A stretch of DNA of 64,000 nt from Naegleria gruberi (taxonomy: Eukaryota): NCBI GenBank assembly GCA_000004985.1, contig GG738852.1. One strand, written 5' to 3'. Made by a program: the position numbers and the translations under genes. Shown here in pieces: positions 21,855 to 57,664 of the stretch (within the stretch, counting starts at the first letter, position 1; each line of letters starts with the position of its first letter). Below the pieces are notes generated by a model. The model made no database searches. It saw nothing but the letters and a program-made list of their open reading frames with translations, and was not told where the DNA came from.

Positions 21855-21931
21855 TTTTTTAAGTTTTACAATGTAAACTTGTCCGTTCGCCAAAGGTAAT
21901 CAAGCTGATTATTCACATTTCATTAAAAAAA

Positions 21932-23617
21932 ATGTCAGCAATGATGTTCATCATTAAATTTCTCATCGTTACCATTTGTTTAATCCAAATTTGTGTTCAC
22001 TCAACATTGAACGATGAAATATTCAACTCTGTAATATCTACCAATCAATTACCATTTGAAATGCCATCTTTTGATCAAGTGTTAAATTCCAACAAGTTTG
22101 TTCTCGCTCATTATTTCAAACCCTTTCCACTTTCAATTGATAATAAGAATCCATCTCAAGATTATTATTCAGTTAATTATTTACAACCATCAGGAGAGGG
22201 AAATAAATTTATAAAACAAGGTGGTTTTTTGAGAGTGAGACCTCTTCCAATATTTGCACCACAAAATGCTTCAAATATTTATTGGAAATTAACAAATATG
22301 GAAAAGGAAGTGAGAATGGCAATTGCTAGAGGTATTAATGGATGGTCCTATGATATTTTGAGTGTTAAGGATATTGGTAATGGAACTTGTTTTTATAAGG
22401 GGACTTTATGTGAATTGTCAATCATGTTGCAAGCTGTTAAAAATGTTGATTCTCAATCAAGATTTAAAGTAGTTTTAATGCCAGATATGTCTTCTTCACT
22501 TTCACTATCAGATATTGTAACAATAGTTAAATATTTATATAATGACACTGCCATTTATAGAAATGGTTCAAAACCTGTCATTGCACCATTTTATGCAGAA
22601 GGTGTTTCACCAATTCAATGGCAAAGTTTATTACAAAATTTAACAAGTGATGGATTTCCAATACTTTTACTTCCAACATTTTTAACTATTTCTTCAAAAT
22701 ATATTAATGTAGAAATGTATGCTAATATTAGTATTGGAATGGGTGTTTGGGCAACTGTTGGAGTGCCAACACAAGGTTCTTCATCTATTGCATATGCTTC
22801 AACTGTTAGGAATGCAAAATCTAATAATTCTTTATTATTTTGGCTGGGAATGATGCCACAAACTTATAAACCAAAAGATTGCATACTCTATGATTCGTAT
22901 AACAGTTTAGCTTATAGAAATGCATGGATGTCTACTTTACAAACAAATGCAGATATTGTTCATGTGGCAACTTGGAATGATTTTAGTGAAAGTGGTCAAT
23001 TACAACCAATTACTGATTTACAAAATACAACAGGAAACGGATTTTATGATTTAACAGCTTATTATGCACATTGGTGGAGAACTGGATTACAACCAACTAT
23101 TATTAGAGATGTTGTTTATTATTTTTATAGAAAGGAAGCCACCAATGCCTATGCACCTAATATGGGATGTAATTTTACAATGGGAATTTCACAAAGTGTT
23201 TCAAATCAAATTGAAGTATTGACCTTTACAACAGATCAATCAATTTTAACAATTATTATTGAGAATTCAAATTATACATTTATGATTAATTCAAGTGGTA
23301 TTAATTCTTTCTTTATTCCATTACAAGCTGGAAAACCAAATATTCAATTATGGAGAAATGGAATTAATATCATTACTGTAGAAGGAAATCATGAAATTTT
23401 TGCAACCAATGTTGGATTACCGAATGGAGTATTGGATTTGACTTATTGGAGCGGAAGTACTGCTTCTTTTATTACACCTTCGAAAAGTGTAAATACTTTT
23501 ACTTCCTCTAATAGAAACGTGGGTAGCTCAATAGTTGCAATTTCCAAATGTTCAACTCATGTGAATATGTTTATTCCATTATTCTTTGTATTCATTGCAA
23601 TATTATTAATATTTTAA
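21932..23617 (+). CDS. Secreted glycoside hydrolase, GH71-like (alpha-1,3-glucanase / mutanase family)
   Basis: N-terminal signal peptide (MSAMMFIIKFLIVTICLIQICV). HVATWNDFSESGQLQP resembles the GH71 VTWNDYGESHY block. C-terminal hydrophobic tail (possible GPI or TM). 561 aa, single exon. Family call is from memory of GH71 motifs. Confidence 0.55.
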   Translation: MSAMMFIIKFLIVTICLIQICVHSTLNDEIFNSVISTNQLPFEMPSFDQVLNSNKFVLAHYFKPFPLSIDNKNPSQDYYSVNYLQPSGEGNKFIKQGGFLRVRPLPIFAPQNASNIYWKLTNMEKEVRMAIARGINGWSYDILSVKDIGNGTCFYKGTLCELSIMLQAVKNVDSQSRFKVVLMPDMSSSLSLSDIVTIVKYLYNDTAIYRNGSKPVIAPFYAEGVSPIQWQSLLQNLTSDGFPILLLPTFLTISSKYINVEMYANISIGMGVWATVGVPTQGSSSIAYASTVRNAKSNNSLLFWLGMMPQTYKPKDCILYDSYNSLAYRNAWMSTLQTNADIVHVATWNDFSESGQLQPITDLQNTTGNGFYDLTAYYAHWWRTGLQPTIIRDVVYYFYRKEATNAYAPNMGCNFTMGISQSVSNQIEVLTFTTDQSILTIIIENSNYTFMINSSGINSFFIPLQAGKPNIQLWRNGINIITVEGNHEIFATNVGLPNGVLDLTYWSGSTASFITPSKSVNTFTSSNRNVGSSIVAISKCSTHVNMFIPLFFVFIAILLIF

Positions 23618-24276: not shown

Positions 24277-27054
24277 ATGTCGCTAATCTACTTGGACTAT
24301 AATGCTACCACACCAATAGATGTTGCAGTCTCCTCTGCAATGATTCCATACATGACCCAACATTTTGGCAATCCATCTTCGTCTCATCACTACGGCACTA
24401 TTACTAAGAAGGCAGTCACACGATCACGTATTCAAGTTTCACAATTGTTGAATTGTCATCCCGATGAGGTGATTTTTACGAGGTTTGTTTTTTAATGCAA
24501 ATTATGAATGACACACTGTAAAACAGTGGAGGAACAGAAAGTAATAATTATGCAATCAAGGTGTGTTTTAATCAATTTTATAATAATAATAATTTTATTC
24601 ATCTAATTTTAACATTAATACCTAAAAATTGGAATTGATCAATTAATTTAAATGAATTTTAATGAATTATTAAAGGGTATTGTGGAGAATGCCCTGTTAA
24701 ACTCAAGTGATCGAATCATTCATTGTATTACATCTAGAGTTGAACATCCTTCAGTGATGGAAGTTTTCAAATTTCTAGAACAAAGATATAGTCGAGTAAG
24801 AGTAACGTATTGTGGTGTTGATGAGAATGGCACGATTAGATTGGACGAATTTAAAAATGCACTGAGTAGGGAGACTCTTTTGGTTAGTGTCATGCATTCG
24901 AATAATGAAGTTGGCACACTGCAACCAATTAGAGAAATTGGAAAATTAATTAGAAGTTTTGAAAAGGAGAATCAAATGGAGAGAAATTCAATCATTTTAC
25001 ATACAGATGCTGCTCAAAGTATTGGAAAAACTTTAATTTCATTATATGAGAAACCATTATACTCTTACATTGATGATGAGGAACAAGGAAAGAAAATTGA
25101 CTTGGACAGAAATGAAATTAGGAACAAGGTGATGGCTCTCAATGAGAATTTTGTAAGTGATCTCTTTGGAACGAGTAGTGATACGGAGGAAGAGGATATC
25201 ACACCGGTTCACCTACTTTCTGTATGTACACACAAATTCTATGGTCCAAAGGGTGTTGGTGCCTTATTTATCAGAAGAAATTGTGGCATTCAATTAGAGA
25301 AACAAGTGCATGGAGCTTCTGTTCATGAGAGAGGATACAGAAGTGGTACTGAGAATGTTATTCTAGTTGTTGGATTAGGTAAAGCCTGTGAGCAATGCCT
25401 TATTCATATGGTTGACAGAGTTGAACACATGTTTACAACAAGGGAGAAACTTTACAATGGATTGTTAAACAACTTGTCAAATATTGTACAAATCAAACTG
25501 AATGGTCATCCAGAGAAGAGACTTCCAAACACTTTGAATATTTCTTTTGCTGGAATTGAGGCTAATACAATTTTAGATGATCTCTCCCAACACATTGCAG
25601 CAAGTGCTGGTTCAGCTTGCCACTCTTCATCTCATGAGGAAGGCGCAGAGAAGAAAATTGTAATTTCACAAATATTGGCTGAAATGGGAGTGGATGTAAA
25701 TATTGCTATGGGAACTATACGTTTCTCAACTGGTTTATTATTGACAAATGATGAGGTTGAGAGTGCTATTCACCATGTTACTGATACTATTAGCAAATTG
25801 AGTGGTGGAAATGCATCTTTTGCAATTACTTCTCAATTAAGCAATAGTTTATTCACACCAATAGAAGTTCCATCTATCAAATCAGGACTGGATTTGGCAA
25901 TGAAAAGAGTAGTGGAAGATATGGTTGAACCTTCATTTTCTGCAGAGAATGAGGGATTCAATGTGAAACTCACCTCCACAACTCACGGATTGGGATGTGG
26001 ATGCAAGATTAGAGCACAAACACTCTCAAGTATTTTGAGCAAGATACCAAAGCAACCATTCGATCCTAATGTTCTGGTTGGAACTGAGACGAGTGACGAT
26101 TGTGGTGTGTACAAGCTTACTTCTGAGCTTGCACTGTGCGCCACTGTTGACTTTTTTACACCTATTGTCGATTCTCCAAAAGATTTCGGAGCCATTGCAT
26201 GCGCCAACGCCTTAAGTGATGTTTATGCAATGGGAGGAGAGTGTAAAGTTGCTCTCAATATTGTGGCCTTCCCAGTTAAGAGACTCTCATTAGATATTTT
26301 ACAATTGATTCTGCAAGGTGCACAAGAAAAAGCCAGTGAAGCTGGTGTTACCATCATTGGTGGTCACTCAATAGAAGATAATGAACCAAAGTTTGGTATG
26401 TGTGTCAGTGGCTTGGTTCATCCTGAACGAATTTGGAAGAATGTTGGATGCAGAAATGGAGATGTACTCTTATTGACCAAACCTATTGGTACAGGAGTAC
26501 TCACTACAGCCATGAAGAAAGGACTTATTGGACCTAATGATGATTGTTCCAAGAAGTGTATCGAATGGATGTCCACACTTAATAAGAGTGCCTCAGAAAT
26601 TTTGAGAGGCTTGCACAGAGTAAATTCATCCTCCACACCATATGAAATACATGCCTGCACGGATATTACAGGTTTTGGATTAATGGGTCACTTAAGAGAA
26701 ATGATTACTGGAGACAATCAAGATAATTTATATGCACAAATTGAATCTGAAAAAGTTCCATTCATGGACAAGGCCTATGAAATGATTCTCTCAGATATCA
26801 TTCCTGGTGGTACAATTAACAATATGAATTTTGTTCAAAAGATCACTAAATTCAATGAGAGTGTTAGTCAAATTGTAAGAACTTTATTGTGTGATGCTCA
26901 AACCTCTGGTGGTCTCTTATTTAGTGTTTCTCCACATGAGAGTGAGGAAATTATTTCTGATTTCAAGAGATTAGGTATTTCAATATGGACAGTTGGTTCT
27001 ATTAAGCAACATGATACATGTTCCAATGATAATTGTACCATTCACGTATTGTAA
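24277..27054 (+). CDS. Fusion protein: N-terminal NifS-like class-V aminotransferase (cysteine desulfurase / selenocysteine lyase) joined to C-terminal selenophosphate synthetase (SelD/SPS, Cys type); 3 exons including a 34-nt micro-exon
   Basis: Exons 24277..24482, 24527..24560 (micro-exon encoding (S)GGTESNNYAIK) and 24676..27054, with GTTTGT..AG and GTGTGT..AG introns. Frames checked. The NifS part is YLDYNATTPID...HHYGT...FTSGGTESNN...SVMHSNNEVGT...FSAHKFYGPKG.... The SPS part runs from about 25950 and includes HGLGCGCKI (Cys, no in-frame TGA), VLVGTETSDDCGVYKL, DFFTPIVDSPKDFGAIA. Confidence 0.8.
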
Positions 27055-36028: not shown

Positions 36029-36271
36029 TGTGATGATGAGGATATTTTTTGTTCGCTTTTGCAAAATTTGTGTTCAACTTTTTTCCGCTATTTTGTGAAG
36101 ATTGGATGACGTCATGTGAAATCACCTATTGAATTGATTGGATAACGCTCACAAACGATATTGGTTCCAATTTTTATTAATTATTGTTAATAAAACAATA
36201 ATGAACATAAATATATATGTTGAATTGTTTTGAGTGCAAATAATAAGGAATGTTATGGTACTCCCAACGAG

Positions 36272-36352
36272 CGGTCTTGACCGAGTGGTTAAGGTGATTG
36301 ACTAGAAATCAATTGGGGCGACCCGCACAGGTTCGAATCCTGTAGACCGCGA
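36272..36352 (+). tRNA. tRNA-Ser (anticodon AGA, decodes UCU), long variable arm
   Basis: GCGGTCTTGACCGAGTGGTTAAGGTGATTGACTAGAAATCAATTGGGGCGACCCGCACAGGTTCGAATCCTGTAGACCGCG. Acceptor stem GCGGTCT/AGACCGC. D-loop GAGTGGTTAAGG. Anticodon loop CTAGAAA. T-arm GGTTCGAATCC. No encoded CCA. Followed by a T-run. Confidence 0.85.
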
Positions 36353-42955: not shown

Positions 42956-44270
42956 ATGCCAAAACACCAAAACATCTCCTACTTTTATGATGGAGATGTT
43001 GGTAATTATTACTATGGCCAAGGCCATCCAATGAAGCCACATCGTATCAAGATGACCCACAATTTGTTATTAAATTATGGACTTTATAAACATTTGGAAG
43101 TATATGTAGGTTTTATTATGATTGAAAATAGATTAAATTTTGTATGATGATCAGAGACCTCATCCAGCTTCTGAAGTTGAAATGTGTAAATTCCATGCGG
43201 ATGAATATGTTGAATTCTTGAAAAGAGTTACACCTGATAATATGCATGATTTCCAAAAACAATTACAAGCTTTTAATGTTGGTGAAGATTGTCCAGTATT
43301 TGATGGTCTTTTTGAATTTTGCAAACTTTCTGCAGGTGGTAGTATTGGAGCAGCAGTAAAATTAAACCATGAACAATCAGATATTGCCATCAACTGGGCT
43401 GGTGGTTTGCACCACGCTAAGAAGAATGAAGCCAGTGGCTTTTGTTACATTAATGATATTGTATTGGCTATTTTGGAATTACTTAAATATCATGCACGTG
43501 TTCTTTATATTGATATTGACATTCACCATGGTGATGGTGTTGAGGAAGCTTTTTATACCACAGATCGTGTAATGACAGTTTCTTTCCACAAATTTGGAGA
43601 ACAATATTTCCCAGGAACAGGTGATATCAAGGACATTGGTGCTGGTGCTGGAAAGTATTATGCACTCAACTTCCCACTTAAGGATGGTATTGATGATGAG
43701 AGCTATCTTTCAATTTTCAAACCTGTTATTGAAAAGGTTATGCAAGTTTTTAGACCAGGTGCTGTTGTTCTTCAATGTGGTGCTGATTCTTTAACTGGTG
43801 ATAGATTGGGTTGTTTTAACTTGACAACCAAAGGACATGCTGCTTGTGTAGACTTTGTCAAAACATTTGGCTTACCTCTTCTTGTTTTAGGTGGTGGTGG
43901 TTATACTGTTCGTAACGTTGCTAGATGTTGGACATATGAAACCTCAGTTCTTCTAGGTATTGACATTGAAAGTGAAATGCCATATAATGACTACTTTGAA
44001 TATTTTGGCCCAGATTATAATTTACATCTTCAACCTTCAAACATGGAAAATATGAATTCTCTAGAGTATTTAGAAAAGTATAAGAATATTATTTTGGATA
44101 ATTTGAATCATATCAAAGGAGCACCTTCGGTGCAGATGCAAGAAGTTCCACCTGACACTTATTATGTCAGTGAAGATGAGGATGATGTTGATCCTGATGA
44201 TCGTTTGTCACAAAAGGTTCTTGATAGACATAGAGCTCGTTCTAATGATTTTTATGATGATGACTTGTAA
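42956..44270 (+). CDS. Class I histone deacetylase (Rpd3/HDAC1-like); 2 exons
   Basis: Exons 42956..43105 and 43155..44270, joined by a 49-nt GTAGGT..AG intron, phase 0. The junction ...YKHLEVY|[22 protein letters not shown] matches HDAC1 ...EIYRPHKA.... Catalytic blocks [42 protein letters not shown]. Confidence 0.9.
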
Positions 44271-44327
44271 TCTAATTTAATAACTCTTGTAAATTTAAAT
44301 ATAATTCTTTATTCACACAAATAAAAA

Positions 44328-44963
44328 ATGACCTTTTCCAATAACCTAATCATTCACGTTCATTATGATCACCAACAACAATACCAGAACAATAATCATT
44401 CTTTTCAAGAAGAAGAAATTAAACAATCGGAATCTATTCCATATCATGCAATTTTAACTTTTAATGGAAAACAATATAAATGTAGTGTTGGAAGAAATGG
44501 AATCAATCAAAAGGTTGGTGAGGGCGATGGAATTACACCCATTGGAGAATATTCATTGAGAATGGCCTTTTACAGATCAGATAGGGTTGATCCATCAATT
44601 ATTTCAAAAATTAAAGGAATTCCTCTTATTGAATTGAAAGAAAATTATGGTTGGTGTGATGATATGTTAGATTCACTGCATTACAATAGATTAATACAGC
44701 TTCCTGTATTGGAAGGATTATCGAGTGAAAAATTGTGGAGACAAGATCATTTGTATGACCTTTTTGCAGTAATAGGTTATAATGATAATCCAATTCAATT
44801 AGGAAAGGGAAGTGCAATCTTTTTCCACATTGCATCTGAAAATTATGGACCAACTTCAGGATGTGTTGCCATGCAGAGGGATGATTTAATTGAAGTATTT
44901 TCTAAATTGACTGCCTTTACCATTTTGAAAATTTCACAATCCTCTTATCCTTATCTGAAATAA
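44328..44963 (+). CDS. L,D-transpeptidase (YkuD/ErfK) catalytic-domain protein, bacterial-type; no signal peptide
   Basis: 211 aa with ATG at 44328. GEGDGITPIGEYSL and FFHIASENYGPTSGCVAMQRDDLIEVF fit the YkuD H...(S/T)xGC(I/V)xM catalytic signature. Only 57 bp downstream of the HDAC stop. Confidence 0.55.
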   Translation: MTFSNNLIIHVHYDHQQQYQNNNHSFQEEEIKQSESIPYHAILTFNGKQYKCSVGRNGINQKVGEGDGITPIGEYSLRMAFYRSDRVDPSIISKIKGIPLIELKENYGWCDDMLDSLHYNRLIQLPVLEGLSSEKLWRQDHLYDLFAVIGYNDNPIQLGKGSAIFFHIASENYGPTSGCVAMQRDDLIEVFSKLTAFTILKISQSSYPYLK

Positions 44964-45008: not shown

Positions 45009-46248
45009 TTAATCTTGATATTGCTTTTGAACAACTTGGGAATCACCATGTTTCAAAAGTTCAACATCACCTTCCACCATTCCTCTAACTAATTCATCAA
45101 AGCTGACATTTCTCTTCCATCCTAATTCAGTTTCAGCCTTGGTTGGGTCACCAATCAAGAGTTCAACTTCAGTTGGTCTAAAGTAACGTGGGTCAACCTT
45201 AACTCTGACAACACCATCAACAACACCATGTTCATCAACAGTACCTGGAGTACCCTTCCATTCAACCTTCTTACCGAGAACAGCAAATGATTTTTCAACA
45301 AATTCTCTAACTTTGTGTTTTTCACCAGTGGCAACACAATAATCGGCTGGCTTTTCTTGTTGGAGCATCAACCACATGGCTTCAACATAGTCCTTAGCAT
45401 GTCCCCAATCTCTTTCAGCATCCAAATTACCCAAATACAAGCAATCTTGCAATCCGAGATGAATACGAGCAACAGCCATAGTAATCTTTCTTGTAACAAA
45501 GGTTGGACCACGACGAATACTTTCATGATTGAAAAGAATTCCGTTCAAAGCAAACATATTGTAAGCTTCTCTATAGTTGATAACAATCCAATAACTGTAC
45601 AACTTGGCGCAAGCATATGGAGAACGTGGATAGAATGGAGTGGTTTCTTTTTGTGGAATTTCTTGAACTAAACCATACAATTCACTAGTACTAGCTTGAT
45701 AGAATCTAGTCTTCTTTTCCAATCCACAAGCACGAATGGCTTCCAAAATACGCAAAGTACCAATACCATCAACATTGGCAGTGTATTCAGGCATTTCAAA
45801 ACTGACTTTAACATGGGATTGAGCACCCAAGTTGTAGATTTCATCTGGTCTAATCTTGGAAATGATGGAAATCAAGTTTCCGGTATCAGTCAAGTCACCA
45901 TATAAAAGTTTGAATTCTGATTAATTATTATTATTAATCAAATAAATTAAATCATCAAAAAAGATCAAAATAATTATCATCACAAAGGATTAAAATTGTT
46001 AGCGTGAATCACGACAAAAATTACTTACTAGCCTTGGTGATGTGAATATCCTTATACAAATGTTCAACTCTACCAGTGTTGAATGATGAAGAACGTCTAA
46101 TCATACCATAGACAGTATATCCCTTTTCTAACAAGAGTTCAGCCAAGTAGGATCCATCTTGACCAGTTACACCAGTAATCAAGGCAACTTTAGAGTCGTG
46201 TTCTTGGATTGGAATTTGGGTAATGTCGACTGGTGTTGGTTCGCTCAT
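45009..46248 (-). CDS. GMD: GDP-mannose 4,6-dehydratase; 2 exons
   Basis: Exons 46029..46248 and 45009..45916 (minus strand), joined by a 112-nt GTAAGT..AG intron (45917..46028), phase 1. Exon 1 encodes [48 protein letters not shown]. Exon 2 encodes [59 protein letters not shown]... ATG at 46246-46248 (MSEPTPV...). Confidence 0.9.
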
Positions 46249-46767
46249 TTTTTTATTGTCAGTGCTTCTGTTGTTTTCCAACAGTGTCGAAAAAACATCA
46301 ACGGTAACCATACAAAATATTCACAGAAGAAAATAAGGAATGGAAGTGGAAGTTGTTTACGATACATGGTTTGTATTAGGAACAATGAAGAGGTTGGTCA
46401 ATTGGTTTAATAATTTTGAATATTGTTGAGAAGAATCTTTGTCATTTTCTCATTCTCGGTAAATTTCCCTATTTATTTGTTTTCTCGTTAAGAATATTGT
46501 CAAAGATTAGGCGAAGTTTAATATTACACAAGAGTGGTAAAATTCAAGGTCAGACAATAAAGCGTTTCTTGATCACTGCTTATGCTACATTTCTTAGATG
46601 TCCTTAACTTTTGATTCATCATATTAGCTGTTGAACCTAACCATCCGGCCTTTTCCTGTTCTCATATTTTTTGAACAGCAAAATTGCGGTTTTTAAAATT
46701 TATTAAATATTTAATACGTGTGTGCTGGAATAATTCCTAGAAGTTAAATAAATCTGGATTTTATTGC

Positions 46768-48089: not shown

Positions 48090-49240
48090 TTACAATCTAT
48101 TTGAAGCACCACCACAAGTATTTCTCATAATAATTGATTCAGATGAAACACCTGGACCGAAAGCAACAGCAATAGACCATTCATTATTGAGATATTGTTG
48201 AGTTCTTCTATATAATTCCATTACAAACATAATGGTAACAGAGGACATGTTACCATATCTTGTCATGATATCCCATGAGGCCTTCAAATCTTCACGATTC
48301 ATTGTCAATGCCTTTTCAACTGCATACAAGATTGCCTTACCACCTGGGTGAGCCAAAACATTACAATTTTCCTTCAAAACAATTTCATCCTTGTGTTGAG
48401 ACTTCTTCAACAAGGTATTAATGTAATCCTTGAGTGAGTTGGTAATGATTTGTGGAACTTCAGGTGACAAGCTCAAGTGGAAACCATCATGGAAAACTTT
48501 CCATGTCATGCATTCATCAGTATTTGGAGTAGTGTAAGAGTGAGTATCGAATAATTCATAAACAGGTTTTTCACCCTTTTGAGCTTGTGGTTGAGAACCA
48601 ACAACCATTGAGGCAACACCATCACCAAAGATGGCACTAACAATCTTTTCATCAGTATTATTGGAAATTCTAAAGTGAACAGATGACAATTCAATACAAA
48701 TGACCAAAACTCTATTCTTTGGATTGAGAGAAGTCAAAGCACGAGCAGCCTTCAAAGTAATCAAACCAGCAGCACATCCTGACATGTTGATTGGGAAATA
48801 TTCAACAGCGTGAGACAATCCAAGTCTATCCATAAACTTCAAGTGAATATTTGGAACAGCAATACCAGTTGAGGTACAAGTAATGAGGTGAGTAATTTCC
48901 TTAACATCACCCTTCCATTCATCAATGGCCTTAGAAGCAGCTTGATAAGCCAATTCTGGGGCAACCTTCAAGAAGATATCATTTCTACTTTCAATAGTCT
49001 TCAAATCATTGGTAGAATTCTTGGTAAAATCGAAAGCAACACATCTTTCCTTAATTTCACAGCCCTTGAACAAGTTGTGAATTCTTTCCTTGATCTTTTC
49101 GTCAGCAGTTCCGTAATCCTTCATGATACCTTCGAAGAGTTCTTCTTGAGTCTTTCTTGGAGGATTGGCAACACCAATACCAAGAATGTAAGCATTGCTT
49201 GGGTTCTTCATGTTGGCCTTTCTGGCATGAGCAGCAAATT
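48090..49240 (-). other. Type III PKS (chalcone/stilbene synthase-like) domain forming the C-terminus of the hybrid PKS
   Basis: Catalytic triad context Cys (INMSGCAAGLITL), His (LAHPGGKAIL), Asn (RYGNMSSVTIMFV), plus the GFGPG-like AFGPGVSSES near the C-terminus. Domain boundaries are approximate. Confidence 0.8.
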
Positions 49241-52200
49241 CCTTAACTGGAACACTTTCAGGAACAACAGTCTTAGTGAGTGGAGTGTTATCAGTGGTGG
49301 TAGTAGTGACTGTTGTGGTAGCAGTAACAACTGGAGTTTGTTGAGCGACAACAGGTTTTGGTTGTTCAGCAACAACTGGTTTTGGTTGAACTGGAGTAGC
49401 AGCAGAGGCAACAGCAGTTGGAGTAGCAGTCTTGGTTTGCTTGGCTGGTTCAGATTTTTTAGAAGTCTTAGATTCCTTCTTTTCAGATGAAGCAGCTCCC
49501 ATCTTGTCCATAATCTTAGCAGCAAGTGACTTGACAGTTGTGTCCTTCTTCAAGATATCAATGGTTGTGATTGAACCACGAGGATACATCTTATCCAACC
49601 AGTTCTTCAATTGAGTAGCCATCAAAGAGTCCATACCGTATTGTCTGAGTGGTTCAGCAATTTCAATAGCTTCTAATGGAATACCCAAAATCTTGGCCAA
49701 TTGAGTGGCAATCATTTGATCGACAGTTAATTGAGAAGTAGAAGCATCCATACCAGCATCTTGAGCAGTTTCAATAAACAATTCACCGAACATCTTCTTC
49801 AAATGCTTAAAGTTATCAGAGTGATCCTTCCAATCAATACAACTGATAATCTTTTGTGGTTGAGCATCAGTTTGTTGAGAAATCAATGCCTTTTCAAGAC
49901 ATTTAACCAAGAGTGGAATTGGCATAGAAATGAAACCTCTTGATCTCAAAATAACCTTAGTTGAGTATTGTCTTGAAACAAAACCATCATCAATGGCACC
50001 AAAGTTAACACTCAATGCTGGTAAATTCTTTGACTTTCTGTAGTGGGCAAGAGCATCCAAAATACAATTGGCAGCAGCATAATTGGATTGTTCCATATTA
50101 CCATTGATAGCAACAAAGCTGGAGAACATGACAAAATATTTGATAGAGTTTTCATTCAAAGTAGCATGGTGAACATTCCAAGCAGAAACAGCCTTAGCTT
50201 GAATGACATTGTTGAACTTGGTTTCAGTCATGTTATTGATGGAACAATCTTCATATACAGTAGCAAGATGGAAAACTGATTCCAATGGTGGCATATTCAA
50301 AGTGGTACGAACTTGAGTAATGATATTTTCAACATTTTGTCTGTTAGAAACATCACATGGCAAAACTTGAATATTCAAAGAAGAGTCAGTCTTGATCAAT
50401 TCTTCAATTCTATCCTTTGATTGACCTTCAGTCAATTTACCACTTCTTGAGAGAATGACTAAATTCTTAACTTGCTTTTGTTCAATGAGCCATAAAACGA
50501 GGGACAAACCAACACCACGAGTACCACCAACAACCAAATGAGTCTTGTCAGAAGAGAAGGTCAATCCACGCATTTCTTCCTTCAATTTTTCATATCTTGG
50601 AATGGAGGTTTCCAAATCTTCATTGGTCATGTTGAGGACAATCTTACCAATGTGCTTGGCATGAGCCATAAAATTGAAAGCATCATGAAGCTTTTCCTTA
50701 TCATAGACAACATATGGCAATGGGAAGAGTCTCTTTTGCTCCATCAAATCCATAACTTCTCTGAACATTTGTTGAACAAGTTCTGGCTTTTCGTCCATCA
50801 TTCTGTCCAAATCAACTGAGGCATAGGTCAAGTTACGATGCATTTGTTGCAAATTGACACAAGTACCATCATAGATATCTCTAATACCAATTTCGACAAA
50901 TCTACCATATGAACCCAATGATTCAAAGTTGGCAGACAACATATCAGTACCAGCCAAAGAGTTCAAAACAACATCACAACCCTTTCCATTAGTGAATTTC
51001 ATAACATCATCACGGAAACTAGTTGAACGAGAATCAGTAGTGTAATGAACCTTATAGGTTTCATCTTGTTCCAAGAAGGTTCTCTTCTCACCACGACCAG
51101 CTGTACCAATGGTGACGGCACCAAAGTGATTAGCAATTTGAACAGCAGACAACCCAACAGCACCAGCTGCAGAGTGAATCATACAGGTTTCTCCCTTTCT
51201 CAATCTGGCAACATGAACCAAACCATACCATGAAGTCAAGAAGGCAGATGGAATAGTTGAAGCTTGTTCGTAGGACATCCAATCTGGTTTCTTAATAGCG
51301 AGACTTGACTTGACATTGACATAGGATGAGAAACATTTTCTAGCAATACAGACAACCTTATCACCAATCTTAAAGTCAGTAACAGATGGGCCAACTTCAA
51401 CAATGACACCAGAACATTCCAAACCGAATGGTGGATTCCATTTACCACCTCTTCTAAAAGCCTTATCTGGAATTCTACCCAATGAGAACATTAAATCCTT
51501 GAAACTCAAAGCAGAAGCCTTAACTGAAATTCTAACTTCATCAGCTTCAAGTGGAACAAATTCTTCAACTTCATGGAATGACAATTCACTAACTGAACCA
51601 ATTGAGTTGGACTTTAAGGTAACTGGAGCGTTTGGCTTTTGAATCAATGTTGATTTGACAACCTTCAAATACTTCAAGTCACCACAAGCAGCTAAAGCCA
51701 ATTCGTTATATTCCAAATTGTCACAATTTACAAAGAGGTTAGAAATAGTTTGGGAAGCAATGTCCATGTTGATACCTTCAGAGAAATCGAACAAGAAACT
51801 CTTAATGTTTGGATGTTCACTTCTGAAAGTTCTACCAATACCAACAAATTGAGCAGATGATGGAACAGAGTAGGTGAGTTGAGCACCCTTGGTGACAATC
51901 CACAATTTAGTTTCACATGATTCATGGTCAAGTTCAATCTTGATCATTTCCTTAATAATTTGCATCAATCTCCAAGAGTTGGATTCTTGAGTGACTTGAT
52001 TATCTTCAGCAACGTTAGCAACAAACACAATACCAGAAATTTCTTGATTTTGAGCGAGCATGTTAACAGCTTGTTCAGCAGAAACAATTGTAGTAGAAAC
52101 AGCAGACAAGGAAGAGACAACAGCCTTGGTCATGTCAGATTCAGCAACATCAGAGACAACAATCCATTGTTGAGCAACAGATTGTTCTTCTTGTTCGACT

Positions 52201-55200
52201 GGAGCAGTCATTTCAGTCAATTCTTCCTTATTGGCGGAAGTCCAAGCAACATCATACATACAATCATTAGAAGTAATGGTAAAGACAGTTGGACAAGATG
52301 CTTGAGTAATAGCTCTACACTTGACGCACAAGAATGAAGCAATTGGAACAATAGAACCTTGCTTGTGGCCATAAATAAAGACGTCACCTTCAAGTTCATA
52401 TTGAGATTGATTAGTCATCTTGCAGTAAACTGAAATACTATCCATGTCTGGGACCAATTGGTTCAAACAAACTTCAGTATTCAAAACACAAGTATCAATT
52501 GAAGATGGAATGTATACGATAGCATCTTCTTCAGCAATAGCGATCAATGATTGCAAACAAGAATCCAAAATACCAACTTCCAAAACAGACTTGTGTCTCT
52601 TAGTATCCAAGAGACTCTTTGGTCCTTCATCGAATTTCTTCTTCAATGACAATTCACTGACACCTTCATTCTTACCAACATAAATCTTATCCAATTGTTG
52701 GAAAACTGGACCATATTCAAGACCCATCTTTCTCAATTTAGAGTAGAGTTCATTCTTTGACATTGAGACTTCCATGCAACGTGGCTTGACTTCATCCAAG
52801 TTTGGATGAGTCTTTAAATTGGTTGGTGGCAACATTCTCAAGAAACACTTATAGTGATCGAGCCAATCTTCCAAACCTCTCTTACTCTTAATTTCAATCA
52901 TTTGACTATTTTGAGTTCCGTGAACTAATGGAGTAACATCAGTTTCAACAATGAAACCACCTGGTGCAGTTTGAGATAAGGATAGAGCACCCTTAAAGTC
53001 ACATCCTTGCAAAATGAATTGCTTTGGAAGTTCCTTTTGTTCAGAGTCCTTTTCATTAGCTCTGATTTGAGCAACAGCAGCGTGGAGAGACATTAAAACA
53101 TAGGAAACACCTGGATAAATGATATCACCTTGAATAACGTGATCCTTCAAGTTAGGGAAGTGATCCAATGAAATTCTATTTTGGAATGTAACACTACCAG
53201 ATCTCAAACTCTTGTGTCCAACCAAATTAGATGGATAACCTCTTCTCCATTCAGCAGCTTGTTCTTCAGTTTGATTCCAAATCATTTGACTTCTATCCCA
53301 TGGGTAGAATGGAACTTTAACCTTATTGAAAAGGTGATTCCAGTTGACATTTTCTCTGAAGGTAACATTGTGAATGAATCCATTGACGAATAAATCTCTA
53401 GCACATTGGAGCATAGTTTCTTGTTCATCAACGAAACGCTTCAAAGTAAAGTAACACTTGGTATCTTCAATACCCAATTCAGAAGCACATTCCTTAATGG
53501 AAGCAGCAAGAACTGGATGAGGACTCAACTCAACAAATCCTCTGTAACCTTGTTTTAACAAATCAGTAATTGGATCAGCAAAGAGAACAGCTTGTCTAAC
53601 ATTACCCCACAAATAGTGTTCATCCATATTTTCAACAGTGGTATCATACAATTTACCAGTAACAGTAGAGTAGAGTGGAATGAGGGTTGGTTTACCACGG
53701 CTGACTGGTGAGAAATTCTTCAAAGCATTCAACATTTCTTCCTTAATTGGTTCTTGATATTGAGAGTGGAATGCACAATAACCTCTCAACTTTCTACAAA
53801 AGACTCCCTTACCCTTGGAAATATCTTGTTCCAACTTGTTAATGAGTTGAGGAGAACCAGCCAAAGTACATGATCCAGGACCATTGATAGCAGCAACAAC
53901 AACAGCAGAACGATCTTCACCACTCAAATATTCATCCAAGTAGAGTTCACATTGAGCTGGAGAGACACCAACAGCCAACATGTTACCAGATCCACAGGTC
54001 TTTTCTTGCAAGGTACTTCTCCAATACAAGATGGTAATGGCTTCTTCCAAAGTATAGACACCAGCAGCATAGGCACTACCAACTTCACCAGCAGAGTGAC
54101 CAACAACGACAGATGGATGAATATTCCAAGCTTTCATCATGGCATATAAACCAGCTTGGAGGAAGAAGATAGCTGGTTGAGCATAGAGTGGGTGATCCAT
54201 ATCATCATCAGTTAAACATTGTTCCTTAATCCACTTTCCAACAAGAGACCATCCAGACAATTGACTGAACAATCTATCACATTCATCCAAACAATTTCTG
54301 AAAATTTCATACTTGTTATAGAGTTGGATACCCATGGATTTAGTTTGTGGACCTTGACCTGGGAAGACAAAGACGAATCCCTTATCACTTCTATTTGAAT
54401 TATGTACAATACCCTTAGATCTAAGAGTATCAGCAGATTCGGATGCAATTGTCTTCAATTGTTTGACACAATCTTCAACAGAGCTAGTAATGATAGTACT
54501 TCTCAATTTGTGATGAGATCTAAATTGATTTTGAACAGTAAAGACATCAATCATAGAATCCTTATCATGGATACATTCCTTGCTTGATAAATCTTGAGCA
54601 AGACTTTGGAGGGATGGAATGGATTGTGCAGACAACATCATCATGACCTTTTCGCTTTCCTTTTCTGGCAATTTTGGTGCTTCCAACTTTGGTTGCTCGA
54701 ATTCTTCCAAAATGACGTGAGCATTGACACCACCAATACCCATAGAGTTAATACCAAAGACCAATGGCTTGGAACCTCTCTTCTTAACCAATGGAATTGG
54801 TTCAGTAACAACTCTCATATTATACTTATCCAATGGAATCTTTGGATTCAACTTTTTAATATTGGCAACTGGACATAAGAGTCTCTTTTCCATCATGAGA
54901 ACAGCCTTAATTAAACCAGCGACACCAGATGCACATTCCAAGTGACCAATATTACCCTTAACAGAACCAACATAGATTGGTTTGGATCTATTTGGACCGG
55001 AGAGAACTTCACCAATGGCAACAGTTTCAACAACGTCACCCTTAGCAGTACCAGTACCGTGACATTCAACATAATCAACTTCGAATGGTGACAAGATACT
55101 AGCAGTTTCTTCTGGTAATCTATCATAAGCTTTCTTAATATTCAAAGCTTGAGTAATTGAGGAAGGAGTGATCAAAGAATCTTCAGCAGCACCATCAACA

Positions 55201-56066
55201 TTGACACTTGAACCACGAATGACACCATAAATACGGTCACCACTTTCAAGAGCCTTCTTCAATGGCTTTAAAACAACTAAACCAGCACCTTCACCTCTAA
55301 CGAAACCGTTGGCAGATTCATCGAATGGTTTACACTTACCATCCTTTGATAAAACACCAACTTTACTAAACTCGCAATAAGGAGATGGAGAAAGGATTAA
55401 AGAGACACCACCTGCAATAGCCATTTCACACTCATTATTCTTCAAGCTCATACATGCTTGATGAACTGCAACGAGAGAAGATGAACAAGCAGTATCAATA
55501 CTCATAGATGGACCTCTAAAATCATAGAGGAATGAAATACGGTTAGAGGCAATACTCAAAGTATTACCATTGTGAGTGTATGAAGTAATTCTTTCAAAAT
55601 TATTGTTATCCAATTGAACAGTGTAAAAGTCCAATTGACCAATACCGATAAAGACACCAGTTTCATCGAACAAATGACCATTTGTGCTATCTTTCTTTGG
55701 TCTAATACCAGCATCTTCTAAACATTCCCATGTTAATTCTAAAAGTAAACGTTGTTGTGGATCCATAACTTCCACTTCTTTTTGACCAACACCCAAAACA
55801 CTACAATCGAAAGCCTTGATTTGATCCTCGGGTATGTAAGCACCACGAGATGAAGACATTAATCCAGGAACATTGGAAGCATCAGTAGATTCCCAATTTT
55901 GAGATTTCCATCTCCATTCAGGTGTATCGGTAATGTGTTCTTGGCATTCAGTGAGGAGCTTCCAAAATTCGTGCTTATCTTTAGCTCCAGGTAAACGACA
56001 GGAAAGACCAACAATGGCATAACTGTCAGCAGTGATATGATTGTGATTATTTGTAGTTGTAGACAT
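48090..56066 (-). CDS. Hybrid polyketide synthase: reducing type I PKS (KS-AT-DH-ER-KR-ACP) with a C-terminal type III PKS (chalcone-synthase-like) domain; single 8-kb exon
   Basis: First ATG at 56064-56066 (MSTTTNNHNH...); ORF-track M at 56102 is TTG. KS: DTACSSSLVAV, ECHGTGT, GHLECASG. AT: GHSAGEVGSAYAAG. DH: LDHFPNLKDHVIQGDIIYPG. ER: GLECSGVIVEVG...IHSAAGAVGLSAV. KR: VVGGTRGVGLSLVLWL. ACP: QYGMDSLMATQL. A Pro/Thr/Val-rich linker follows. Type III domain, about 48090..49240: MSGCAAGL (Cys), HPGGKAIL (His), YGNMSSV (Asn), AFGPGV. No SAM-methyltransferase motif found. Confidence 0.9.
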   Translation of the reverse strand: MSTTTNNHNHITADSYAIVGLSCRLPGAKDKHEFWKLLTECQEHITDTPEWRWKSQNWESTDASNVPGLMSSSRGAYIPEDQIKAFDCSVLGVGQKEVEVMDPQQRLLLELTWECLEDAGIRPKKDSTNGHLFDETGVFIGIGQLDFYTVQLDNNNFERITSYTHNGNTLSIASNRISFLYDFRGPSMSIDTACSSSLVAVHQACMSLKNNECEMAIAGGVSLILSPSPYCEFSKVGVLSKDGKCKPFDESANGFVRGEGAGLVVLKPLKKALESGDRIYGVIRGSSVNVDGAAEDSLITPSSITQALNIKKAYDRLPEETASILSPFEVDYVECHGTGTAKGDVVETVAIGEVLSGPNRSKPIYVGSVKGNIGHLECASGVAGLIKAVLMMEKRLLCPVANIKKLNPKIPLDKYNMRVVTEPIPLVKKRGSKPLVFGINSMGIGGVNAHVILEEFEQPKLEAPKLPEKESEKVMMMLSAQSIPSLQSLAQDLSSKECIHDKDSMIDVFTVQNQFRSHHKLRSTIITSSVEDCVKQLKTIASESADTLRSKGIVHNSNRSDKGFVFVFPGQGPQTKSMGIQLYNKYEIFRNCLDECDRLFSQLSGWSLVGKWIKEQCLTDDDMDHPLYAQPAIFFLQAGLYAMMKAWNIHPSVVVGHSAGEVGSAYAAGVYTLEEAITILYWRSTLQEKTCGSGNMLAVGVSPAQCELYLDEYLSGEDRSAVVVAAINGPGSCTLAGSPQLINKLEQDISKGKGVFCRKLRGYCAFHSQYQEPIKEEMLNALKNFSPVSRGKPTLIPLYSTVTGKLYDTTVENMDEHYLWGNVRQAVLFADPITDLLKQGYRGFVELSPHPVLAASIKECASELGIEDTKCYFTLKRFVDEQETMLQCARDLFVNGFIHNVTFRENVNWNHLFNKVKVPFYPWDRSQMIWNQTEEQAAEWRRGYPSNLVGHKSLRSGSVTFQNRISLDHFPNLKDHVIQGDIIYPGVSYVLMSLHAAVAQIRANEKDSEQKELPKQFILQGCDFKGALSLSQTAPGGFIVETDVTPLVHGTQNSQMIEIKSKRGLEDWLDHYKCFLRMLPPTNLKTHPNLDEVKPRCMEVSMSKNELYSKLRKMGLEYGPVFQQLDKIYVGKNEGVSELSLKKKFDEGPKSLLDTKRHKSVLEVGILDSCLQSLIAIAEEDAIVYIPSSIDTCVLNTEVCLNQLVPDMDSISVYCKMTNQSQYELEGDVFIYGHKQGSIVPIASFLCVKCRAITQASCPTVFTITSNDCMYDVAWTSANKEELTEMTAPVEQEEQSVAQQWIVVSDVAESDMTKAVVSSLSAVSTTIVSAEQAVNMLAQNQEISGIVFVANVAEDNQVTQESNSWRLMQIIKEMIKIELDHESCETKLWIVTKGAQLTYSVPSSAQFVGIGRTFRSEHPNIKSFLFDFSEGINMDIASQTISNLFVNCDNLEYNELALAACGDLKYLKVVKSTLIQKPNAPVTLKSNSIGSVSELSFHEVEEFVPLEADEVRISVKASALSFKDLMFSLGRIPDKAFRRGGKWNPPFGLECSGVIVEVGPSVTDFKIGDKVVCIARKCFSSYVNVKSSLAIKKPDWMSYEQASTIPSAFLTSWYGLVHVARLRKGETCMIHSAAGAVGLSAVQIANHFGAVTIGTAGRGEKRTFLEQDETYKVHYTTDSRSTSFRDDVMKFTNGKGCDVVLNSLAGTDMLSANFESLGSYGRFVEIGIRDIYDGTCVNLQQMHRNLTYASVDLDRMMDEKPELVQQMFREVMDLMEQKRLFPLPYVVYDKEKLHDAFNFMAHAKHIGKIVLNMTNEDLETSIPRYEKLKEEMRGLTFSSDKTHLVVGGTRGVGLSLVLWLIEQKQVKNLVILSRSGKLTEGQSKDRIEELIKTDSSLNIQVLPCDVSNRQNVENIITQVRTTLNMPPLESVFHLATVYEDCSINNMTETKFNNVIQAKAVSAWNVHHATLNENSIKYFVMFSSFVAINGNMEQSNYAAANCILDALAHYRKSKNLPALSVNFGAIDDGFVSRQYSTKVILRSRGFISMPIPLLVKCLEKALISQQTDAQPQKIISCIDWKDHSDNFKHLKKMFGELFIETAQDAGMDASTSQLTVDQMIATQLAKILGIPLEAIEIAEPLRQYGMDSLMATQLKNWLDKMYPRGSITTIDILKKDTTVKSLAAKIMDKMGAASSEKKESKTSKKSEPAKQTKTATPTAVASAATPVQPKPVVAEQPKPVVAQQTPVVTATTTVTTTTTDNTPLTKTVVPESVPVKEFAAHARKANMKNPSNAYILGIGVANPPRKTQEELFEGIMKDYGTADEKIKERIHNLFKGCEIKERCVAFDFTKNSTNDLKTIESRNDIFLKVAPELAYQAASKAIDEWKGDVKEITHLITCTSTGIAVPNIHLKFMDRLGLSHAVEYFPINMSGCAAGLITLKAARALTSLNPKNRVLVICIELSSVHFRISNNTDEKIVSAIFGDGVASMVVGSQPQAQKGEKPVYELFDTHSYTTPNTDECMTWKVFHDGFHLSLSPEVPQIITNSLKDYINTLLKKSQHKDEIVLKENCNVLAHPGGKAILYAVEKALTMNREDLKASWDIMTRYGNMSSVTIMFVMELYRRTQQYLNNEWSIAVAFGPGVSSESIIMRNTCGGASNRL

Positions 56067-57664
56067 TCTTTGATCTATATGGTTGTTATCGTGACTATAC
56101 AATTGATTAATTGATCAAAGTGTTTGTGTTGTTGTATATAGATTCTCTATATAATGTTTTGGGTTGATTTTGTGTCTTTTTTTCAGACTTGCAATTTGTC
56201 TAAGGTGGCCTTGCAGTTCTCTTAAAGGTTCAAATTTGAGTACTATGCTGAAGTGTGCTATTGTGACACAAAAATTGAAACTAGCTGTTGTTGTGGAGAG
56301 TCCTCTCTCTTCGAATCAACATTCAACATCTCTCTCCTTTCTTACATCACCAGCACACAGAAAGTAGAGTGCTCTCTCTTGAGGAATCAACAACATTGCT
56401 GTTGATGATATTCATGAAGAATCTGAAAAGATCTTTTGCCAACAACCATCCACTTGGTTAAAAGAAAGTTTGAGGAATCAAATGTTAACTTTTGAGTGAA
56501 AGAAGGCACTTCTTCTCGGCATTTTCCAGAAATCAACGGACACTTTGGAATAAATTCACCGTACATGTAGGCCATTTCTATCGAGTATTTGATAGTTCCA
56601 AATTGCTGGAATGTTTGAAATTCCAAATCAGCAATTGGGTTACGATCAAATTTCTAAATTTTTCAAGCTGTATTTTGCTTCTTAATACCTTACTGTAAGT
56701 TTGAATTGCATTTTCAATGTGTTTCTTAATGAAGTGTGCAGTGGGTCATTGCAATAAGGAGTAATCGATAGAGTTACTACTAGTCGATTGAAAAGATAAT
56801 TTAAGGAACTTAATATCCTTCCTCCCATTCATATTAACAGATAACAAGACAGATCATATATTGGCTCATATTGCATTAATACTAAACAGTAAGCGCTGAT
56901 GCTTCAAGTTGTTTTTACAGCCATTGGTACACTGCAAAGGAATATAGGGCAGAACTTTCATATTGATGGTTCTCTTGAAGCTTCATATGATTGAAAGGTT
57001 CTTCATCCAGCAACACCTCATCATCAGAAAGCATAATATTCATGATTATTAATCATTCAATGTCCTCTCAACGTCCACGTTTCTTTTATAGATTAAATTC
57101 CAATCCTAGAAGCCAATACAAATCATGCTTATTGTATAGAAATTTATTGTAATTTTCTATTGCGTTCCGATAATAATAAAAGATAATCACACTATTCAAC
57201 TTTAAATTTTCGAAAGCATAGAATACAGCCCACCATTTCAATGCATTCTTTATTCTGTGCCTGAACCTGTGTGACAACCCAATTTTGTACAGACACTTTG
57301 AATTTTCCTGTGAATTGGACATAAAACTTGATGTGCGATTGTATACTATTTGAGGATTGTTAGATATGGAATCAACAAAGATAAGTGGTAATTATCTGGC
57401 TGCAATTATGTTAGAAAAAATGTCTCAATCTCTTACACTTGTATTCTTGTGAAACCTTAATGAAATCAGAGCATGAATCAACAAATTTATTAAAATAATA
57501 ATAAAAAAATTGTCAAATAATACCTCTTAAATGTTGATCATATTTGAACCCATTTTACATTCTCTTTATATTCAAAACTTTTCATCCCTAAAGTAAAAGT
57601 GAAAATTAACTTTACACCTGCTATTCAAAAATTTGCTTGAAAGTAAAAAAAATTGAATTAAAAA

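Follow-up and report, generated by a model that had tools for sequence, protein, structure and literature searches.

A stretch of 64,000 nucleotides from contig GG738852.1 of Naegleria gruberi (GenBank assembly GCA_000004985.1), hereafter the window, carries on its plus strand an uninterrupted open reading frame (ORF) of 211 codons that runs from an ATG at 44328 to the end of a TAA at 44963, coordinates and length identical to those given in a preliminary description of this DNA made from the letters alone. That description had recognised in the product the catalytic domain of bacterial L,D-transpeptidases (YkuD) and had taken the gene for a domesticated horizontal acquisition. Both parts of the signature on which it relied, ITPIGEYSL and HIASENYGPTSGCVAMQRDDL, are indeed found, and a profile search agrees as to the fold, since the Pfam YkuD family (PF03734) matches residues 48-198 with E=4.9e-11 and a score of 43.8 bits that clears the gathering score of 23.4. 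The ORF lies far beyond chance, because its best homologue is found at E=4e-80 and the matches at E<=1e-3 amount to 628 proteins in one database and 3052 in the other.

In the AlphaFold model of the window protein (overall predicted local distance difference test, pLDDT, 86.3; predicted template modelling score 0.83), residues 39-206 form a block with pLDDT of 93-98 and the beta-barrel of the YkuD fold is present, whereas residues 1-38 are modelled with lower confidence as a beta-strand at 8-13 followed by a disordered insertion rich in Q, N and E. The first 13 residues are equivalent to the "MDLIV" N-terminus of leaderless bacterial proteins; residues 14-38 have no counterpart in our alignments, either in the other eukaryotic copies or in the bacterial sequences, and the total of 211 residues includes a catalytic core of about 165 residues and a low-complexity insert of 25. 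Every column that is invariant in bacteria is kept in the window protein, Glu65 included. His167 and Cys179, the catalytic pair, have 11 residues between them and an Ile stands directly after the histidine; the YkuD motif has been written as H(S/G/D)X14-19C, with a longer spacing and without Ile at that place, and in the enzyme Csd6 the residue after the catalytic histidine gives the triad only its main-chain carbonyl (PMC4599014). The two residues after Cys179 are V-A, which matches the "GC[IV]A" of Csd6 and Pgp2. As the preliminary description had stated, no signal peptide is present: the N-terminal Kyte-Doolittle maximum is 0.81 (10-residue window) against 2.5-3.5 in secreted bacterial members. 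No transmembrane segment is predicted (maximum of 0.94 in a 19-residue window) and there is neither Arg nor Lys among the first 30 residues. These hydropathy and charge values exclude a signal peptide, a transmembrane segment and a mitochondrial-type presequence, and the amoeba protein is a whole bacterial domain with a low-complexity insert and without any added targeting peptide.

The ORF is embedded among eukaryotic genes. On the same strand, the last large exon-ORF of a class I histone deacetylase (HDAC) stops at 44270 and leaves a gap at 44271-44327, the 57 bp counted in the preliminary description; this HDAC is a eukaryotic gene of vertical inheritance, and its homologue list includes environmental sequences at 96% and 92% identity and the Willaertia magna protein at 84%. 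On the other side, the end of a convergent gene for GDP-mannose 4,6-dehydratase lies 45 bp downstream, its two exon-ORFs hitting consecutive parts (positions 1-48 and 61-332) of the Pfam profile GDP_Man_Dehyd. Further eukaryotic genes around it encode a metallophosphoesterase and a USP-type ubiquitin hydrolase with a DUSP domain. The 57-bp spacer has to accommodate the 3' end of the HDAC gene together with the promoter and 5' untranslated region of the YkuD gene. The tight spacing in which a clue to the origin of the gene had been seen is real but tells nothing about that origin, because close spacing is the rule in the window, where gaps of 15-60 bp are common between adjacent open frames. 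The GC content is uniform along the 64 kb, at about 31-39%. The ORF is intronless, as first described, being collinear with bacterial proteins from the first beta-strand through the C-terminus. The coordinates of the gene, its parts and its immediate neighbours are collected in Table 1.

Table 1. Positions in the window of the YkuD gene, of the parts of its product and of the adjacent genes.
Feature	Position	Strand	Basis
Complete intronless coding sequence, 211 aa + TAA; leaderless single-domain YkuD-fold cysteine peptidase	44328..44963	+	ORF listing, Pfam, homologues, dN/dS
Residues 1-13, including first beta-strand LIIHVH	44328..44366	+	Model strand 8-13, alignment of eukaryotic copies, bacterial N-termini
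Residues 14-38, Q/N/E-rich low-complexity insertion, predicted disordered	44367..44441	+	pLDDT <50 at residues 21-36
YkuD catalytic domain, residues 48-198	44469..44921	+	Pfam
E65-G66-D67 motif	44520..44528	+	E65 and D67 invariant in 120 sequences; E65 aligned to Csd6 Glu-110
W109-C110...Y119-N120 segment, 8-residue spacer with final His118	44652..44687	+	Spacer count
Catalytic His167 (CAC)	44826..44828	+	Invariant column; aligned to Csd6 His-160
Catalytic nucleophile Cys179 (TGT)	44862..44864	+	Invariant column; aligned to Csd6 Cys-176
AT-rich 57-bp spacer, HDAC stop codon to ATG	44271..44327		Sequence; spacing typical of window
Upstream neighbour: class I histone deacetylase, last large exon	43140..44270	+	Pfam Hist_deacetyl E=2e-84
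Downstream convergent neighbour: GDP-mannose 4,6-dehydratase, exon-ORFs 45009-45893 and 46021-46311 with intron between	45009..46311	-	Pfam GDP_Man_Dehyd

Bacterial descent and integration of the gene

Orthologues were found in related protists: the closest named relatives of the window protein are those of Naegleria lovaniensis (53% identity), Willaertia magna (51%) and N. fowleri, and the three genes stand in the midst of genes for Maf1, HECT, histone, RING and V-ATPase subunit D proteins, their contigs being 233, 790 and 730 kb long. Two environmental sequences group with these eukaryotic copies, P0001, which is 75% identical to the window protein, and P0005, whose gene lies on a metagenome contig (L088, 40% GC) beside a split WD40 gene and a gene for a secreted low-complexity repeat protein rich in Q, G, Y and P; that contig probably comes from another protist with the same transferred gene. 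All the remaining relatives are bacterial and represent at least 595 GTDB species representatives, mostly Alphaproteobacteria (Rhodospirillales, Rhizomicrobium/Micropepsaceae, Reyranella, Hyphomonadaceae) with some Gammaproteobacteria, Cyanobacteria, Melainabacteria, Bdellovibrionales, Nitrospinae and phyla of the Candidate Phyla Radiation (CPR). Outside Naegleria, Willaertia and the two protist-like environmental sequences no eukaryote appeared in either search. A profile search built on the eukaryotic sequences only gave 273-324 bits for the five known ones and at most 228 bits for all others; its top scorers were heterolobosean or environmental sequences only, and no further named eukaryote or EukProt entry was recovered from a database that includes Acrasis, jakobids, Balamuthia and dictyostelids. 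A viral origin or vector was considered and rejected, with no relative in IMG/VR and no significant match in BFVD. In databases the N. lovaniensis and N. fowleri proteins carry the automatic label "L,D-TPase catalytic domain-containing protein", and our literature search for YkuD or transpeptidase genes in Naegleria or other eukaryotes found no published account of the heterolobosean gene.

We built a bootstrapped neighbour-joining tree of 258 sequences and 165 columns, and in the best tree the six eukaryotic sequences make one clade. The window protein groups with Naegleria: the four Naegleria-type sequences are joined with a bootstrap of 87%, the window protein and P0001 with 100%, and N. 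lovaniensis and N. fowleri likewise with 100%. Independent support for a single origin comes from a shared rare indel: the spacer between the invariant W-C and Y-N pairs has 8 residues with a final His in six out of six eukaryotic copies, while 306 of 343 bacterial sequences have 7 residues there and the eukaryotic state recurs in only two of them (and in one of the 98 sequences of a second set). Nearest by score are P0389, P0007, P0004 and L006, AT-rich bacteria of gammaproteobacterial or unplaced affiliation, CPR phyla being also near, and compositional attraction may affect the position of the eukaryotic sequences in the tree. Codon usage was compared too, as the preliminary description had suggested: the GC content at third codon positions (GC3) of the YkuD gene is 0.222, inside the window's range of 0.18-0.36 and close to the 0.215 of HDAC, and contigs of bacterial relatives have 37-56% GC. 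Pairwise ratios of non-synonymous to synonymous substitution (dN/dS) among the eukaryotic copies are 0.11-0.31; the value for N. lovaniensis against N. fowleri, the pair with the least saturation, is 0.13 (dS about 1.0). The gene neighbourhood differs among the window organism, N. lovaniensis and N. fowleri, Willaertia and the organism of P0005. Taken together, neighbourhoods, GC3 and dN/dS speak for a gene that was acquired long ago, became ameliorated, was kept by selection and has passed vertically down a heterolobosean lineage since then. The gene is bacterial by descent, physically integrated, ameliorated and under purifying selection, which upholds the domesticated horizontal acquisition put forward at the outset; most parsimoniously, there was a single transfer, into an ancestor held in common with Naegleria and Willaertia.

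The copy of N. fowleri stands apart. Compared with N. lovaniensis, its start codon has changed from ATG to TGG and a frameshifting insertion of 4 nt follows "...CHVGR" (L003 5880-6130, GCA_008403515.1; also L004 and L005); in addition, a Pro that is invariant elsewhere has become Ser, and about 70 residues of low complexity have been inserted. These changes are identical in three independent assemblies, and the annotated model of 221 aa begins at an internal ATG, without the first three strands of the domain. In the pathogenic species the gene may be a pseudogene or may encode a truncated product, yet its dN/dS against N. lovaniensis is the low value given above.

Comparison with characterised YkuD-fold enzymes

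A search of the PDB sequences with the window protein alone returned no match, and the family profile found Pgp2 and Csd6 as its sole fold-relevant matches, by way of the EGDxxTPxG motif and the nucleophile region; among solved structures, the closest structural neighbours are likewise of the Csd6/Pgp2 type. Csd6 of Helicobacter pylori (PMC4599014), Pgp2 of Campylobacter jejuni (PMC3961634) and Bd1075 of Bdellovibrio (PMC8938487) have been established by experiment as L,D-carboxypeptidases. The activity of Csd6 is abolished by mutation of Glu-110, Tyr-133, His-155, Trp-158, His-160 or Cys-176, Glu-110 being the residue that recognises the side chain of meso-diaminopimelate (mDAP) (PMC4599014). 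All six equivalent positions are invariant columns in our family alignment of 120 sequences; in the window protein four are identical to Csd6 (Glu-110 to E65, Tyr-133 to Y143, His-160 to H167 and Cys-176 to C179), one is conservative (Trp-158 to F165) and one differs (His-155 to S162). Csd6 and Pgp2 are periplasmic and are built of three domains (dimerisation, catalytic and NTF2-like), whereas the window protein is a single domain without leader.

In the latter respect it resembles ElsL of Acinetobacter baumannii, which consists of a YkuD domain of some 164 aa and has no leader. Annotation had at first made ElsL a transpeptidase; it proved to act in the cytoplasm as an L,D-carboxypeptidase of wall recycling, which cleaves the tetrapeptide M4 and spares the pentapeptide M5 (PMC8649774). 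The window protein, too, consists of one YkuD domain of this size class (about 164-170 aa) and lacks both a signal peptide and a peptidoglycan-binding module; with its core of about 165 aa it fits the selection used in that study (leaderless, single YkuD domain of 105-200 aa, no peptidoglycan-binding domain; PMC8649774). It comes, however, from another family, a mainly alphaproteobacterial subfamily, whereas the orthologues of ElsL are mainly gamma- and betaproteobacterial or belong to Verrucomicrobia (PMC8649774). A member of the YkuD superfamily by Pfam and by fold, the protein would work most like the catalytic domain of Csd6 and Pgp2 and like ElsL, while being a member of neither family. 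With the canonical L,D-transpeptidases (B. subtilis YkuD, E. faecium Ldtfm, M. tuberculosis LdtMt1/2, E. coli YcbB) it shares the Pfam family, the fold and the His/Cys pair; these enzymes are secreted and act on an existing wall, usually possess peptidoglycan-binding or further modules, and are equipped with a lid and two substrate paths, traits that the window protein appears to lack.

Within the bacterial family, about 65% of the members are leaderless, most of them about 167 aa long. Such leaderless YkuD proteins are usually annotated "L,D-transpeptidase family protein", and, if the activity proposed below is right, they are probably cytoplasmic L,D-carboxypeptidases. The neighbourhoods of 69 bacterial loci display a synteny of housekeeping type that says nothing about function, with RibBA, HrcA, LeuS, a response regulator, a protein of 320-350 aa and YggS, which is convergent in 19 of the loci. 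In L011, L015, L092 and about 16 other alphaproteobacterial loci the order is RibBA, the protein of about 320-350 aa, YkuD and, only about 7-17 bp away, a convergent gene for a YggS-type pyridoxal phosphate-binding protein of the alanine-racemase fold; a functional tie of YggS to the release of D-Ala would be pure speculation. Some bacterial members (P0133, P0160, P0136, P0237, P0249 and P0226) are fusions: an APH-family kinase with YkuD scored above threshold, CHAP-like and NlpC/P60-like domains with YkuD both scored below it, some of the fusions having lipoprotein signals, and CHAT-YkuD and PAS combinations also occur. In P0192 a DUF559 endonuclease domain is inserted inside the YkuD domain. 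As hints to function these domain fusions are only suggestive.

Candidate function and competing readings

The reading that we favour, with a confidence that is only a little better than even, is that of an intact and selected nuclear heterolobosean gene of bacterial descent whose product is an L,D-carboxypeptidase that trims the stem peptides of prey muropeptides in the cytosol. Cys179, assisted by His167, would attack the mDAP-D-Ala bond of the peptidoglycan tetrapeptide stem while Glu65 holds the mDAP side chain of that stem; because no second acceptor path is apparent, water would resolve the acyl-enzyme, and D-Ala and the tripeptide would be released, which is the L,D-carboxypeptidase chemistry of Csd6, Pgp2 and Bd1075. 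The reaction would take place in the cytosol, as with ElsL, on muropeptides or stem peptides of digested bacterial prey that reach this compartment, and would serve the catabolism or salvage of muropeptide fragments alongside a bacterial-type AnmK. AnmK (anhydro-N-acetylmuramic acid kinase), an enzyme of bacterial cytoplasmic recycling, forms a single-copy orthogroup across Naegleria genomes that has been classed under bacterial digestion (PMC9928731). Like the YkuD gene, it is a bacterial wall-metabolising enzyme that became fixed in a eukaryote that handles bacteria, although fold and chemistry differ. The preliminary description had imagined a domesticated enzyme acting on ingested peptidoglycan fragments, and we retain this as the most likely role; that the enzyme is a carboxypeptidase and not a transpeptidase, which substrate it has, that it works in the cytosol and what physiological role it fills are all things that we infer.

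Among the alternatives, the one that survives best is that the enzyme has ceased to act on peptidoglycan and has been repurposed for an endogenous substrate of the amoeba, a peptide bond of the cyst wall or another one, as a DpaA-like amidase, or that it modifies proteins as a transferase. We hold this to be unlikely, inasmuch as the protein retains all the columns invariant in bacteria, the residue that sets it apart from Csd6, Ser162, is already invariant in the bacterial family, so that this change is not specific to eukaryotes, and nothing in the sequence points to a new substrate. Less likely again would be an antibacterial effector sent to the phagosome or to the outside to damage the walls of prey, on the model of the Tlde1-type effectors of type VI secretion systems or of the dae genes. 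Bacterial peptidoglycan-active enzymes of the dae/Tae amidase type have been domesticated by ticks and other animals. Neither a signal peptide nor a transmembrane segment is found in the window protein or in the copies of P0001, N. lovaniensis and P0005; in the window there is no in-frame start upstream of the ORF, the HDAC stop being only 57 bp away, and the match to Tlde1a is weaker than those to Csd6 and Pgp2. What might speak for export is a hydrophobic N-terminal extension in Willaertia, described below, which could easily be a chance product of T-rich upstream DNA in a genome of 28% GC.

That the gene is a relic of the alphaproteobacterial ancestor of mitochondria, obtained by endosymbiotic gene transfer and lost from nearly all other eukaryotes, seems very improbable to us. 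The predominance of Alphaproteobacteria among the bacterial relatives fits this view, as does P0016, one of the few bacterial sharers of the 8-residue spacer with final His, which is surrounded by genes typical of Alphaproteobacteria. Such an origin would however call for a very large number of independent losses, no other eukaryote turned up in either search in spite of the taxa covered, there is no mitochondrial presequence, and the nearest sequences by score (P0389, P0007, P0004, L006 and CPR phyla) are not alphaproteobacterial. We give slightly less credit still to a true L,D-transpeptidase, as the Pfam name has it, that would form 3-3 cross-links or attach proteins to peptidoglycan. The host has no peptidoglycan and the protein carries no leader for export to a wall compartment. 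In the AlphaFold model, the loop ahead of His167 (residues 150-164) is 15 residues long and strand-free, without the beta-hairpin of a lid, and the model suggests neither a lid nor a second substrate path. In transpeptidases the residue two positions after the catalytic cysteine is generally Arg or Asn; here it is Ala, as in Csd6 and Pgp2. The best matches are to enzymes that were shown to be carboxypeptidases only, and ElsL provides the precedent of a protein that resembled a transpeptidase and proved otherwise. The lid should be read with the fact that B. subtilis LdtBs is also devoid of one (PMC4599014). A non-functional sequence, whether a bacterial contaminant, an artefact of assembly or a pseudogene in decay, in favour of which one could invoke the damaged N. 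fowleri copy and the absence of the exact protein from the gene catalogues searched, is effectively refuted by the uniform composition over 64 kb, the intron-bearing eukaryotic genes 45-57 bp away, host-like codon usage, orthologues on large contigs in three other genomes, dN/dS well below 1 and a 211-codon frame that is open in DNA of 32% GC; a neighbouring protein of 378 aa is missing from the catalogue too, so that the gap there concerns the genome as a whole.

To return to a cytosolic L,D-carboxypeptidase of bacterial descent, a number of observations weigh against it or against parts of it. As regards descent, the clade of the six eukaryotic sequences has a bootstrap of only 49%, the sister group and with it the donor lineage are not settled by the neighbour-joining bootstrap, and apart from the YkuD gene itself no synteny across genera was found between the window and the other eukaryotic loci. 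The state of the N. fowleri copy implies that the function is dispensable in at least one species. As regards activity, which is argued from structural similarity, identity to the characterised enzymes is only 20-22%; His-155 of Csd6, which is essential and contacts mDAP, is Ser162 in the window protein and is Ser throughout the family; and the ElsL model (NCBIfam NF040925) gives the window protein 16.7 bits, over its C-terminal 28 residues only, against a cut-off of 270, with weak matches (E<0.01) to only 3 of the 120 family members. No peptidoglycan-recycling gene or operon was seen in the 69 bacterial neighbourhoods. As regards location, the family is not uniformly cytoplasmic, since signal peptides occur in about 8% of its bacterial members; extra domains are carried by a few. 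In Willaertia magna another ATG lies in frame, 87 nt ahead of the annotated start (L002 5914-6000), and would add "MKIIISLFFLLYLIFSVLSVNFS...", which is signal-peptide-like with a Kyte-Doolittle value of 2.84; this could denote a secreted copy as well as a chance product of the kind mentioned above. A further weak point is the route by which muropeptides would enter the cytosol of the amoeba.

It is tempting to go one step further and to imagine that Naegleria-type amoebae built a cytosolic pathway for dismantling muropeptides by separate transfers, of at least AnmK and an L,D-carboxypeptidase-like enzyme, the fragments being used as nutrients or sensed, and that the source bacterial subfamily makes up a third class of cytoplasmic L,D-carboxypeptidases beside LdcA and ElsL. 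This broader scheme is tentative and we would sooner doubt it than rely on it.

Other features of the window and wider significance

Four other features of the window deserve mention in their own right. On the minus strand, a single frame of 2673 aa (48093-56114) combines a module of the type I polyketide synthase or fatty acid synthase kind (KS-AT-DH-ER-KR-ACP) with a C-terminal type III polyketide synthase that is chalcone-synthase-like, a hybrid architecture that also occurs in the "Steely" enzymes of Dictyostelium. On the plus strand, a frame of 800 aa (24652-27051) joins a class V aminotransferase, similar to NifS and selenocysteine lyase, to the AIRS and AIRS_C domains of a SelD-type selenophosphate synthetase. 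A glycoside hydrolase of family 71, alpha-1,3-glucanase-like, is encoded at 21863-23614 (+) and has the lowest GC3 of the window (0.18). The sole RNA gene found by ARAGORN and Rfam is a tRNA-Ser with anticodon AGA at 36271-36351 (+).

That eukaryotes which deal with bacteria can acquire bacterial wall-active enzymes is already established, and the gene described here changes no general principle. If the proposed function is right, the cytosol of a eukaryote would host some of the chemistry by which bacteria recycle peptidoglycan, which would bear on how bacterivorous amoebae digest, and perhaps sense, the wall fragments of their prey, and would give the AnmK of Naegleria a partner. It would also matter for the annotation of a widespread subfamily of leaderless YkuD proteins and for the understanding of wall recycling in Alphaproteobacteria. 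The damaged copy of N. fowleri adds a small point on gene loss in that pathogen. The main value of this gene is that it may serve as an entry point both to a bacterial subfamily of very wide distribution and to what may be a muropeptide pathway in the cytosol of amoebae.

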